Source: Escherichia coli (lineage in GTDB: Bacteria > Pseudomonadota > Gammaproteobacteria > Enterobacterales > Enterobacteriaceae). Taken from it: DNA of 64,000 bases. The translations under genes and the position numbers were made by a program. Positions 2,365 through 51,868 of the stretch are shown here, piece by piece. The stretch lies in NCBI RefSeq assembly GCF_003334305.1, contig NZ_QOWS01000002.1; one strand, given 5' to 3'. Position 1 is the stretch's first letter, and each line of letters opens with the position of its first letter. The notes under the pieces are model-generated. The model searched no databases. It was not told where the DNA came from and saw only the letters and a program-made list of their open reading frames with translations.

Positions 2365-3129
2365 ATGGAAAATATAATGAACAATCCGGTTATCGGTGTC
2401 GTAATGTGCAGGAACAGGCTTAAGGGTCATGCGACCCAGACTCTGCAAGAAAAGTACCTGAATGCCATCATCCACGCAGGCGGCTTGCCAATTGCGCTAC
2501 CACATGCGCTGGCGGAACCGTCATTACTTGAACAACTTTTGCCGAAACTCGATGGCATTTATCTTCCTGGTAGTCCCAGCAATGTGCAGCCGCACCTATA
2601 TGGTGAAAACGGCGATGAGCCTGACGCCGATCCCGGGCGTGATCTTCTGAGCATGGCGTTAATTAATGCCGCACTCGAAAGGCGCATCCCCATTTTCGCC
2701 ATCTGCCGGGGTTTACAAGAACTGGTGGTGGCAACCGGTGGTTCGTTGCATCGCAAGCTGTGCGAACAGCCTGAATTGCTGGAACATCGGGAAGATCCCG
2801 AACTGCCGGTGGAACAGCAATATGCACCGTCGCATGAAGTTCAGGTTGAAGAGGGGGGATTACTGTCTGCGTTGTTACCTGAATGTAGCAACTTTTGGGT
2901 AAACTCTCTACATGGACAAGGGGCGAAGGTCGTTAGCCCACGGTTGCGTGTTGAAGCTCGCTCGCCGGATGGCTTAGTTGAGGCGGTTAGCGTCATCAAT
3001 CATCCTTTTGCGCTGGGCGTACAGTGGCACCCGGAATGGAACAGTAGCGAGTACGCGCTTTCGCGTATATTGTTCGAGGGCTTTATCACCGCTTGTCAGC
3101 ACCATATCGCTGAAAAACAGCGACTCTGA
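2365..3129 (+). CDS. puuD: gamma-glutamyl-gamma-aminobutyrate hydrolase (class I glutamine amidotransferase-like)
   Basis: Track ORF 2353..3129; start placed at ATG 2365 (MENIMNNPVIGVV...) giving 254 aa. Confidence 0.92.
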   Translation: MENIMNNPVIGVVMCRNRLKGHATQTLQEKYLNAIIHAGGLPIALPHALAEPSLLEQLLPKLDGIYLPGSPSNVQPHLYGENGDEPDADPGRDLLSMALINAALERRIPIFAICRGLQELVVATGGSLHRKLCEQPELLEHREDPELPVEQQYAPSHEVQVEEGGLLSALLPECSNFWVNSLHGQGAKVVSPRLRVEARSPDGLVEAVSVINHPFALGVQWHPEWNSSEYALSRILFEGFITACQHHIAEKQRL

Positions 3130-3155
3130 CCACTACAGTTTAAGGAAATGCAAAT

Positions 3156-3713
3156 ATGAGTGATGAGGGACTGGCGCCAGGAAAACGCTTGTCGGAAATC
3201 CGCCAGCAGCAGGGGCTTTCACAACGTCGTGCCGCCGAACTCTCCGGGCTGACTCACAGTGCTATCAGTACGATAGAACAAGATAAAGTCAGCCCTGCCA
3301 TCAGTACGCTGCAAAAGCTGCTGAAGGTGTATGGTCTGTCACTCTCGGAATTCTTTTCCGAGCCGGAAAAACCTGATGAGCCGCAGGTCGTCATTAATCA
3401 GGACGACTTAATTGAGATGGGCAGTCAGGGTGTGTCAATGAAGCTGGTTCATAACGGTAACCCGAATCGCACGCTGGCGATGATCTTTGAAACGTACCAG
3501 CCGGGCACAACCACTGGGGAAAGAATTAAGCATCAGGGTGAGGAAATAGGCACTGTACTGGAAGGTGAAATTGTTCTGACCATTAATGGTCAGGATTACC
3601 ACCTCGTCGCGGGGCAAAGTTATGCCATTAATACCGGCATCCCGCACAGTTTCAGTAATACGTCGGCAGGTATTTGCCGAATTATCAGCGCCCATACGCC
3701 CACCACGTTTTAA
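3156..3713 (+). CDS. puuR: HTH-type repressor of the puu genes (XRE HTH plus cupin domain)
   Basis: 185-aa ORF; N-terminal HTH (LSQRRAAELSGLTHSAISTIEQ) and position between puuD and puuC. Confidence 0.92.
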   Translation: MSDEGLAPGKRLSEIRQQQGLSQRRAAELSGLTHSAISTIEQDKVSPAISTLQKLLKVYGLSLSEFFSEPEKPDEPQVVINQDDLIEMGSQGVSMKLVHNGNPNRTLAMIFETYQPGTTTGERIKHQGEEIGTVLEGEIVLTINGQDYHLVAGQSYAINTGIPHSFSNTSAGICRIISAHTPTTF

Positions 3714-31986: not shown

Positions 31987-32052
31987 TTATCCCAGATTAT
32001 TGGCAGCAATATGCCAGGCCATATCACTATTGCGGATTTGAATATGTTTCAT
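31987..32052 (-). CDS. ymjD: 21-codon ORF between ycjY and ymjC (ymjD-like)
   Basis: Reverse-strand ATG at 32050-32052 (overlapping the ycjY stop by 1 nt) through stop at 31987-31989, encoding MKHIQIRNSDMAWHIAANNLG; I recall a tiny annotated ymjD at this position in K-12 but cannot verify. Confidence 0.4.
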   Translation of the reverse strand: MKHIQIRNSDMAWHIAANNLG

Positions 32053-44485: not shown

Positions 44486-44660
44486 AACCTTTCCCGTCAT
44501 CAGTAAAAAGTGTGACCCGGTTCACGTAGCGATAGTTTTTACTTATCACTAACTGATTTTTCACAGTTTTAACCGTTCATAAATTACCCTGACACAATCA
44601 TCTGCATTAAAGTAGATGCCAGTTTCTTTGGTCTGATAAATAACGGTTATCGGTGGCGTC

Positions 44661-45569
44661 ATGACTTTTCAGGTAAAAATTCATCAAATTCGTGCTTTTG
44701 TTGAAGTGGCTCGTCAGGGCAGCATTCGCGGAGCGAGCCGAATGTTGAATATGTCGCAACCGGCACTGAGTAAATCTATTCAGGAGCTGGAAGAAGGATT
44801 AGCGGCGCAACTCTTTTTTCGCCGTAGTAAAGGCGTGACGTTAACTGATGCCGGTGAAAGTTTTTATCAGCACGCCAGTCTTATTCTTGAAGAGCTGCGC
44901 GCAGCGCAAGAGGAAATTCGCCAACGACAAGGGCAACTGGCAGGGCAGATTAATATCGGCATGGGGGCCAGTATTTCCCGCAGTCTGATGCCAGCTGTCA
45001 TATCTCGTTTTCATCAGCAGCATCCGCAGGTAAAAGTACGCATTATGGAAGGGCAACTGGTGTCGATGATTAATGAATTGCGTCAGGGAGAATTGGATTT
45101 CACCATCAATACCTATTATCAGGGACCGTACGACCACGAATTTACTTTTGAGAAATTACTGGAAAAGCAATTCGCGATCTTTTGCCGCCCGGGACACCCC
45201 GCCATTGGTGCCCGTTCGATCAAACAGTTACTGGATTACAGCTGGACAATGCCGACGCCACACGGCAGTTACTACAAACAGTTGAGTGAATTGCTTGACG
45301 ATCAGGCGCAAACGCCACAGGTCGGTGTAGTCTGCGAGACGTTCTCAGCCTGTATCAGTCTGGTGGCAAAAAGCGATTTTCTCAGCATACTGCCTGAAGA
45401 AATGGGCTGCGATCCCTTGCACGGACAGGGGCTGGTGATGTTGCCGGTTAGCGAAATTTTACCGAAAGCGGCCTATTATTTGATTCAGCGGCGTGATAGT
45501 CGCCAGACACCACTGACCGCGTCATTAATCACGCAATTCCGGCGAGAATGCGGCTATCTGCAAAGTTAA
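44661..45569 (+). CDS. abgR: LysR-family regulator of the abg operon
   Basis: 302-aa ORF divergent from abgA with LysR-type HTH (GASRMLNMSQPALSKSIQ). Confidence 0.9.
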   Translation: MTFQVKIHQIRAFVEVARQGSIRGASRMLNMSQPALSKSIQELEEGLAAQLFFRRSKGVTLTDAGESFYQHASLILEELRAAQEEIRQRQGQLAGQINIGMGASISRSLMPAVISRFHQQHPQVKVRIMEGQLVSMINELRQGELDFTINTYYQGPYDHEFTFEKLLEKQFAIFCRPGHPAIGARSIKQLLDYSWTMPTPHGSYYKQLSELLDDQAQTPQVGVVCETFSACISLVAKSDFLSILPEEMGCDPLHGQGLVMLPVSEILPKAAYYLIQRRDSRQTPLTASLITQFRRECGYLQS

Positions 45570-45570
45570 A

Positions 45571-45671
45571 ACTGCATAAAAAAATAGAGTCTGTCGACAT
45601 CCGCCAGACTCTACAGTACACACAGCAGTGCATCCGCGTCTTAAGTCCGGCATTGTCTCCTCTGCGCCGGT
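45571..45671 (-). ncRNA. mcaS: Hfq-binding small RNA McaS (IsrA)
   Basis: Reverse strand reads ACCGGCGCAGAGGAGACAAUGCCGGACUUAAGACGCGGAUGCACUGCUGUGUGUACUGUAGAGUCUGGCGGAUGUCGACAGACUCUAUUUUUUUAUGCAGUU, matching the McaS sequence as I remember it, ending in a hairpin plus U7 terminator. Ends are approximate (a few nt). Confidence 0.8.
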
Positions 45672-45898
45672 GACTGTGTTATAACGGTTTTAACCTTTAG
45701 TTGCCAATTTTCTTCAGTGACAGATTTCACGAAAATATAAGTTACATTATTAATATCGTGAATGAATAATCATGCATAAGCATTTTGCTTAAAATATCGG
45801 CAATATTTGGAACTTATTACTGGAATTTTGGGTAATACGTTGTTGGACCGACCCGGTCTGGTTATCATATCGCGCTCTTAATTGCGGGAGGATGTAAC

Positions 45899-46462
45899 AT
45901 GAACCTTGACGACAAATCGCTGTTTCTTGACGCCATGGAAGATGTCCAGCCGCTGAAACGTGCTACCGATGTCCACTGGCATCCAACGCGTAACCAACGT
46001 GCGCCGCAGCGTATCGACACGCTGCAGCTTGATAATTTCCTCACCACCGGATTTCTCGACATCATCCCACTAAGTCAGCCGCTGGAGTTTCGGCGGGAAG
46101 GGTTGCAACATGGGGTGCTGGATAAGCTGCGCAGTGGTAAATATCCGCAACAGGCGAGCCTGAATCTTTTGCGCCAGCCGGTGGAAGAGTGCCGCAAAAT
46201 GATGTTCAGTTTCATTCAACAAGCCATGGCTGATGGTTTGCGTAACGTGCTGATTATTCATGGCAAAGGACGGGATGATAAATCGCATGCCAATATTGTC
46301 CGCAGCTATGTGGCGCGCTGGCTGACCGAATTTGATGATGTTCAGGCATATTGCACCGCGCTACCGCATCATGGCGGCAGCGGGGCGTGTTACGTCGCAC
46401 TACGTAAAACGGCGCAGGCGAAGCAAGAAAACTGGGAGCGCCACGCTAAGCGCAGTCGTTGA
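45899..46462 (+). CDS. smrA: Smr-domain DNA endonuclease
   Basis: 187-aa ORF with C-terminal Smr domain (LIIHGKGR). Confidence 0.88.
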   Translation: MNLDDKSLFLDAMEDVQPLKRATDVHWHPTRNQRAPQRIDTLQLDNFLTTGFLDIIPLSQPLEFRREGLQHGVLDKLRSGKYPQQASLNLLRQPVEECRKMMFSFIQQAMADGLRNVLIIHGKGRDDKSHANIVRSYVARWLTEFDDVQAYCTALPHHGGSGACYVALRKTAQAKQENWERHAKRSR

Positions 46463-49048: not shown

Positions 49049-49170
49049 GCAGGTGAATGCAACGTCAAGCGATGGGCGTTGCGCTCCATATTGTCTTACT
49101 TCCTTTTTTGAATTACTGCATAGCATAATTGATTCGTACGACGCCGACTTTGATGAGTCGGCTTTTTTTT
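49049..49170 (+). ncRNA. fnrS: FNR-activated small RNA FnrS
   Basis: GCAGGUGAAUGCAACGUCAAGCGAUGGGCGUUGCGCUCC...GACGCCGACUUUGAUGAGUCGGCUUUUUUUU matches FnrS as I remember it, ending in a hairpin plus U8 terminator; track ORF 49047..49265 over it is judged non-coding. Confidence 0.85.
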
Positions 49171-50932: not shown

Positions 50933-51868
50933 TTATTTCACTTCAACCACATTCAGCCGTAACTCATCCAACTGATTTTCATCTTCTTCTGGCTGCCAGC
51001 CCGCCGGTTGTAGTGGGATCTCTTCGCGATCAAACGCCAGATCACCCCCGTTAACCACTTCAGAACCGTGGGTAATGCCTTTGAAATCGAACAGGTTGGT
51101 ATCGCACAGATGCGACGGCACCACATTCTGCATCGCGCTGAACATCGTCTCGATACGCCCTGGATAACGTTTATCCCAGTCACGCAACATGTCAGCAATC
51201 ACCTGACGTTGCAGGTTAGGCTGTGAACCGCACAGGTTGCACGGAATAATCGGGAACGCTTTTGCATCGGCAAATCGCTGAATATCTTTCTCGCGGCAGT
51301 AGGCCAGCGGACGAATAACGATATGTTTGCCATCATCGCTCATCAGTTTCGGAGGCATACCTTTCATCTTGCCGCCGTAGAACATATTTAAGAACAACGT
51401 TTGCAGGATATCGTCACGATGGTGACCCAACGCGATCTTCGTCGCCCCCAGTTCCGTTGCGGTACGATAAAGGATACCGCGACGAAGGCGAGAACACAGT
51501 GAGCAAGTGGTTTTGCCCTCTGGAATCTTCTCTTTCACGATACCGTAAGTATTCTCTTCAACAATCTTGTACTCAACGCCCAGCTTTTCAAGATACTCGG
51601 GCAGAACGTGTTCCGGGAAGCCCGGTTGCTTTTGATCGAGGTTAACAGCCACCAGCGAAAAATTGATTGGCGCGCTTTGCTGCAAATTGCGCAGAATCTC
51701 CAGCATGGTATAGCTGTCTTTACCCCCGGAGAGGCAAACCATGATGCGATCGCCTTCTTCAATCATATTGAAGTCAGCAATGGCTTCGCCCACGTTACGA
51801 CGCAGACGTTTTTGTAATTTGTTCAGGTTGTATTGTTCTTTCTTACTAATTTCTTGATTTTGCGACAT
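50933..51868 (-). CDS. ttcA: tRNA 2-thiocytidine(32) synthetase (PP-loop ATPase)
   Basis: 311-aa ORF with PP-loop SGGKDS and Cys motifs; N-terminus here is [18 protein letters not shown]. Confidence 0.92.

Follow-up and report, generated by a model that had tools for sequence, protein, structure and literature searches.

The window analysed here is a stretch of 64,000 nucleotides of Escherichia coli DNA, and the locus of interest within it contains a match to the small RNA McaS between the protein-coding genes abgR and smrA (Table 1). Both flanking genes carry these names in RefSeq records of strains that are identical to the window over 45400-45900, and K-12 MG1655 carries them at 1404741..1405649 (abgR) and 1405979..1406542 (smrA). 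A spacer of 227 bp, which contains the mcaS promoter, separates mcaS from smrA. The plus strand over 45560-45680 reads ...GCAAAGTTAA AACTGCATAAAAAAATAGAGTCTGTCGACATCCGCCAGACTCTACAGTACACACAGCAGTGCATCCGCGTCTTAAGTCCGGCATTGTCTCCTCTGCGCCGGT...

Table 1. Genes and sequence elements of the abgR-mcaS-smrA locus, in window coordinates
Feature	Position	Strand	Basis
abgR (LysR-type regulator, 302 aa; stop TAA 45567-45569; convergent with mcaS)	44661..45569	+	ORF, RefSeq names and K-12
mcaS (McaS/IsrA/IS061, 94 nt; Rfam model reaches 45576)	45578..45671	-	Rfam RF00115 and K-12 b4426 mapping
Intrinsic terminator: hairpin nt 58-88 (-15.8 kcal/mol alone) and U7 (45584-45578)	45578..45614	-	Rfam structure and folding
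GGA 4, nt 70-72, terminator loop, first G closes loop	45600-45602	-	structure
Base-pairing core, RNA nt 40-55, UGCACUGCUGUGUGUA	45617..45632	-	exact-complement search against K-12 csgD leader
Stem-loop 2, RNA nt 33-52	45620..45639	-	Rfam structure; 83% of cells paired, 18 sequences
GGA 3, nt 37-39, top of stem 2 (stem edge)	45633-45635	-	structure
GGA 2, nt 24-26, 3' foot of stem 1 (stem edge)	45646-45648	-	structure
Stem-loop 1, RNA nt 2-25; 6-bp stem, 12-nt loop with AGGAG	45647..45670	-	Rfam structure
GGA 1, nt 12-14, inside loop 1	45658-45660	-	structure
-10 box TATAAC (positions -12 to -7)	45678..45683	-	sequence and PMC4824073 supplement
Putative -35-like TTGGCA, 18-bp spacer to -10 box	45702..45707	-	sequence
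CRP-like site AGTGACAGATTTCACG (sense strand cGTGAaatctgTCACt), centre -52.5	45716..45731	.	consensus search, 2 mismatches
smrA (ydaL), divergent from mcaS	45899..46462	+	ORF, RefSeq names and K-12

We found that a scan of the whole window with Rfam 15 at gathering thresholds gave three matches in total, McaS/IsrA, FnrS and MicC. The McaS/IsrA match (RF00115, 45671..45576, minus strand, E 2.9e-21) scored 117.6 bits, almost three times the gathering score (42) and far above chance expectation, and it covered model positions 1-96 of 96, untruncated and with maximal posterior probability all along. FnrS (49049-49166, plus strand, 135.1 bits) and MicC (53977-54097, plus strand, 125.0 bits) are likewise full length and above their gathering scores. 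The mcaS gene of K-12 MG1655 (b4426, 'small regulatory RNA McaS') occupies the complement of 1405658..1405751 in NC_000913.3. Since the 2002 bases of the abgR-smrA region align to K-12 without gaps, with 18 substitutions, K-12 mcaS maps to 45578..45671 of the window, and its orientation relative to abgR (convergent) and smrA/ydaL (divergent) identifies the site as the positional orthologue of b4426. The window copy is 94 nt long and agrees with K-12 mcaS at 93 of 94 nucleotides. The sole difference, RNA nt 27 (window 45645), is a C where K-12 has a U; it lies in the unpaired linker between stem-loops 1 and 2, outside the csgD-complementary core, in a column that also differs between species in the 18-sequence alignment described below. 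Our data indicate that 45578-45671 of the minus strand is almost certainly an intact E. coli mcaS in which all published functional elements are present.

An earlier note on this DNA had placed McaS on the reverse strand at 45571-45671, had described its terminator as lying within 2 nt of the abgR stop in a very compact convergent arrangement, and had proposed an Rfam scan as a check. Its McaS identification is supported: the match is complete and undisrupted (1-96/96, 117.6 bits) and the position is that of K-12 b4426. The 5' end at 45671 is exact, but 45571 overshoots the 3' end by 7 nt, or by 5 nt relative to the end of the Rfam model. The abgR stop is separated from the final U of the McaS U7 by 8 nt (45570-45577, AACTGCAT) rather than at most 2; the gap is 6 nt if measured to the Rfam model end (45576), and 15 nt (45570-45584) if measured to where the terminator hairpin has its foot (45585). 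The compact convergent arrangement itself is borne out, and the spacing in K-12 is likewise 8 nt (abgR end 1405649, mcaS start 1405658).

The -10 box of isrA/mcaS in MG1655 is TATAAC, and a TATAAT mutant over-expresses the RNA (PMC4824073 supplement). The -35-like TTGGCA is conserved in Escherichia. A generic promoter scan missed the mcaS promoter because it accepts only -10 hexamers that end in T, and the hexamer here is TATAAC; the two promoter-like sites that it returned, 45762..45734 (minus strand) and 45741..45770 (plus strand), are no more than chance expectation and were rejected. A search of the whole window for the CRP consensus gave 23 sites where 26 are expected from shuffles, which is not above chance. 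Between Escherichia and Citrobacter the CRP-like site upstream of mcaS keeps its half-sites GTGA and TCAC while its 6-nt spacer differs. McaS has been reported as CRP-activated and as a member of the CRP regulon (PMC3634460), and the mcaS promoter alignment in PMC4824073 supplementary Fig. S2 labels a CRP element. We therefore retained 45716-45731 as a candidate CRP site on the grounds of cross-genus conservation and the literature, and not of the pattern match by itself. Its centre at -52.5 is at neither the classical class I (-61.5) nor the class II (-41.5) position, but between them. Either activation from this site is atypical, or the site also serves the divergent smrA promoter. The best match to the CRP consensus in the window is found at 44511-44526 (TGTGACCCGGTTCACG, one mismatch), in the divergent intergenic region between abgA and abgR.

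When the Rfam consensus structure is placed on the window RNA, 24 of 24 pairs are standard and the folding energy is -30.2 kcal/mol. The single-sequence MFE fold is long-range and unlike the three-hairpin Rfam structure, it beats shuffles by a slim margin (z = -1.98), and it was given no weight. A simple terminator scan returned nothing over 45300-46000. This was not taken as absence of a terminator, since CM alignment and folding show that of McaS clearly; the scan missed it because its stem rule disallows the bulge in the stem (nt 68 and 78). McaS contains four GGA motifs, in agreement with the published count, and two of these have been shown to bind CsrA (PMC10729762), which is bound through two exposed GGA motifs (PMC4098024; PMC3971182). 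For the copy described here, CsrA binding is a prediction. The earlier note had put the GGA motifs in loops, which applies to two of them (nt 12-14 and 70-72), while the other two (nt 24-26 and 37-39) are found at stem edges.

We found that McaS nt 40-55 form a 16-nt perfect Watson-Crick complement to the K-12 csgD 5' leader in a search for exact complementary runs. The pairing site lies approximately 80-100 nt upstream of the csgD AUG in K-12 (the csgD of the window strain falls outside the window), and this position fits the published pairing of McaS far upstream of the csgD ribosome-binding site (PMC6061853). This core is nearly invariant across all 18 aligned McaS sequences. The corresponding search of the flhD leader for exact complementary runs to McaS found only 7-nt runs. 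RNAduplex, applied over the whole length to the csgD and flhD leaders, over-extended its predicted pairings and was uninformative, and the exact-run search was used in its place.

We asked whether the region might encode a small protein, instead of or besides a non-coding RNA, as a mechanical open reading frame of 42 aa (45653..45525, minus strand) has its AUG at RNA nt 19. However, this frame crosses the terminator and the U-tract and ends 53 nt past the RNA 3' end, within abgR antisense, so that a 94-nt transcript would run out before reaching its stop codon. Its AUG is also sequestered in the 3' strand of stem 1, and between lineages loop 1 differs by non-synonymous-type changes and by indels. 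A coding role is extremely improbable.

Within E. coli, the 111 bases at 45570-45680 were matched in 5368 of 5426 complete genomes. These matches comprise 3366 genomes at 99% identity or above, 533 at 95-99%, 11 at 90-95% and 1458 at 80-90%, and the exact sequence is common to many genomes (matches at 100% identity). The 80-90% group was sampled through three representatives, all of them urine isolates (FDAARGOS_144, SCAID URN1-2021 and Survcare321). Their McaS allele is 86-89% identical over the 111 nt: the loop sequence of stem-loop 1 is replaced, while the GGA of loop 1 is kept, the closing pair G7.U20 becomes C7-G20 (a compensatory change), nt 27-94 are nearly identical and the promoter is conserved. 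That the 5' third of McaS is variable has already been described (PMC4824073). These lineage-specific stem-loop 1 alleles, the K-12/window type and the urine-isolate type, may shift McaS between flhD pairing and CsrA binding. In all three urine isolates an AraC-family gene lies upstream of mcaS instead of smrA. Two of the three have lost the abg operon, with a short abgR fragment beside an intact McaS, and in the third abgR is intact and ends 8 nt from McaS. The deletion in FDAARGOS_144 and SCAID URN1-2021 (locus 1501-2000) takes out abgA, abgB and most of abgT and leaves short pieces of abgR and abgT, and AraC-family and HlyD-family genes replace smrA upstream of the divergent McaS.

In strain MSI001 the query is matched over no more than its 3' 70 nt, directly downstream of an IS5 transposase gene (locus 1500-2570); this appears to be a natural disruption of mcaS. 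Since disrupted copies exist elsewhere, and since the window allele departs from K-12 at nt 27, we considered whether the window copy could itself be a decayed or disrupted remnant that yields no functional small RNA. We give this reading almost no credence: RF00115 is matched from end to end without truncation, nothing is missing from the promoter, terminator, GGA motifs or pairing core, and the identical 111-base sequence recurs in many E. coli genomes. An intact mcaS remains the reading adopted here.

We extended the comparison to other genera with an exact-pattern scan that used the conserved 3' part of McaS on one genome per species. The scan gave 41 loci, 28 of which were dismissed as chance matches in unrelated, mostly GC-rich organisms. 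The remaining 13 are from Enterobacteriaceae, namely Escherichia albertii, E. whittamii and other Escherichia, Citrobacter amalonaticus and relatives, Pseudescherichia vulneris and Trabulsiella odontotermitis, and in each of these 13 a full-length McaS exceeds the RF00115 gathering score (69.6-108.7 bits). Using the window SmrA as a tblastn query, we found smrA divergent and upstream of mcaS in 11 of the 13 loci, all but those of E. coli E69 and Escherichia sp. E1V33, whose locus begins 9 nt ahead of the RNA. With the window AbgR as the query, just two of the 13 loci gave a homologue: E. coli E69 has a fragment, and C. amalonaticus S646 has an AbgR-like LysR gene (2981-3472, 62% identity over 142 aa) with its stop 7 nt from the McaS U-tract, a tight convergent junction like that of E. 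coli. In the other C. amalonaticus genomes abgR was undetected by tblastn within the fetched sequence. The presence of smrA in 11 of 13 loci and of abgR in few of them indicates that mcaS-smrA is a conserved unit and that abgR is a dispensable neighbour. A table of the presence and absence of ydaL, isrA and abgR has already been published (PMC4824073 supplement).

Structural conservation was assessed in a MAFFT alignment of 18 sequences from Escherichia, Citrobacter, Pseudescherichia and Trabulsiella. The terminator helix is paired in 100% of cells and has three pairs changed on both sides, whereas helix 1, in a region that is variable and partly misaligned across genera, is paired in 67%. Over the whole structure five pairs are changed on both sides, compared to 1.5 ± 0.7 in shuffles, and slid-register controls gave 33-43% of cells paired in every case. 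Overall, these comparisons give a picture of constraint in which McaS is kept where abg has been lost, loop 1 varies around a fixed GGA, and nt 40-94 are nearly invariant.

The closeness of mcaS and abgR raises the question of whether the hairpin at 45585-45614 is a shared bidirectional terminator, or whether abgR read-through runs antisense to McaS, with abgR and mcaS expression coupled as a result. The interval from the abgR stop to the hairpin, only 15 nt to its foot, contains no other terminator-like element, the hairpin comes directly after A7 when the plus strand is read, and the spacing of 7-8 nt between the stop and the RNA end occurs in both E. coli and C. amalonaticus S646. On the plus strand, however, the hairpin is followed by CAGTACAC, which contains no T-run, and it is thus not a canonical intrinsic terminator in that direction. 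A bidirectional terminator has an A-tract, a hairpin and a U-tract on both strands; this combination is missing at mcaS, and the simple scan gave no terminator-like site on either strand. McaS is also intact where abgR is a remnant or undetected, which argues that its function is independent of abgR, and a full-text search of the open-access literature found no paper on abgR-McaS interplay. Such a shared terminator or coupling therefore appears unlikely. We regard as somewhat less plausible still the specific proposal that the 8-nt convergent junction is functional, with abgR transcripts that lack a terminator of their own either stopping at the McaS hairpin or running antisense to McaS. If it were true, the junction would couple p-aminobenzoyl-glutamate (abg) regulation to the level of McaS, and hence to biofilm and motility decisions. 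The proximity of mcaS and abgR is a normal inherited gene arrangement, and functional coupling finds no support here.

McaS has been characterized in K-12 as an Hfq-binding transcript of approximately 95 nt that is found in late exponential or stationary phase (PMC6061853, PMC3634460, PMC3971182, PMC4824073). It is an Hfq-dependent repressor of csgD, which acts through induced cleavage of an A/U-rich region and pairs far upstream of the ribosome-binding site (PMC6061853). Repression of csgD, activation of flhDC by the opening of an inhibitory leader structure and the CRP dependence of McaS have been described together (PMC3634460). McaS is furthermore a minor CsrA sponge that de-represses pgaA (PMC3971182; PMC10729762; PMC4098024). 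Its association with core RNA polymerase has also been reported (PMC4824073).

The present analysis shows what the window gene is, that it is complete, where it lies, how it is structured and which motifs it contains, while expression, Hfq and CsrA binding and regulatory outcomes are derived from this literature. On that combined basis, mcaS would be transcribed from its own sigma70-type promoter (TTGGCA-18-TATAAC), starting with the A at 45671 and depending on cAMP-CRP as reported, and transcription would end at the intrinsic terminator hairpin and U7, leaving 8 nt to the convergent abgR stop. The RNA would then be expected to act in two ways described in the literature. The first is Hfq-dependent base pairing. 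Through its core (nt 40-55) McaS would pair with the csgD leader at a site far upstream of where ribosomes bind, which would lead to endonucleolytic cleavage and to loss of the curli regulator CsgD, and by pairing with the flhD leader it would open an inhibitory structure and raise flagellar synthesis. The second is that of a minor protein sponge, whose exposed GGA motifs would bind CsrA and thereby relieve CsrA repression of pgaA and other targets.

The McaS copy, the locus and the arrangement are already known, and the gene is an ordinary E. coli gene in its usual place. The annotation is correct for a textbook E. coli small RNA of biofilm formation and motility, and it leaves current understanding unchanged. 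It has some practical value in that an Rfam pass recovers a real gene that is omitted from the non-K-12 E. coli RefSeq records examined. The RefSeq matches listed for 45570-45680 give 'none' as the annotated feature in each case, including the MG1655 assembly NZ_AKBV01000001.1, the feature table of strain 602354 has no ncRNA row, and among the records examined mcaS is annotated only in NC_000913.3.

Two further observations concern the genomic background of the window. The alignment to K-12 breaks at window position 51861, the 5' end of ttcA, where K-12 has the 23-kb Rac cryptic prophage (annotated from 1411899). As the window continues without Rac at ttcA, the strain lacks this prophage and is not K-12. 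Past 51861 the window follows strain 602354, with ttcA, then uspF and ompN; MicC lies at 53977. Between mpaA and pgrR, an indel polymorphism distinguishes the window (31846-31995, approximately 150 bp) from strain 602354, which has approximately 1.7 kb there, with an SDR oxidoreductase gene and a portion of an alpha/beta hydrolase gene.

The closest known counterpart is K-12 McaS (RF00115, b4426), with which the window copy shares the abgR/mcaS/smrA locus, strand relations, length and ends, as well as the three hairpins, the four GGA motifs, the csgD core, the TATAAC box and the U7 terminator. Differences are U27C within McaS and, in the host strain, the Rac prophage, which is missing downstream of ttcA in the window strain. 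The urine-isolate allele has the same RNA architecture as the window copy and differs in loop 1, in its AraC-family neighbour and, in two of three isolates, in the loss of abg. McaS belongs with the sponges CsrB and CsrC to Rfam clan CL00106, and in those RNAs GGA motifs in hairpin loops titrate CsrA (PMC10729762; PMC4098024). CsrB has 22 GGA motifs, whereas McaS has four, binds approximately two CsrA and is a weaker sponge that in addition engages in Hfq-dependent base pairing (PMC10729762). The CsrB/CsrC architecture comprises about 14-22 repeated GGA hairpins, compared to the four GGA motifs of McaS with two in loops. Judged by this architecture, McaS is partly sponge-like but is not a homologue of CsrB/CsrC.
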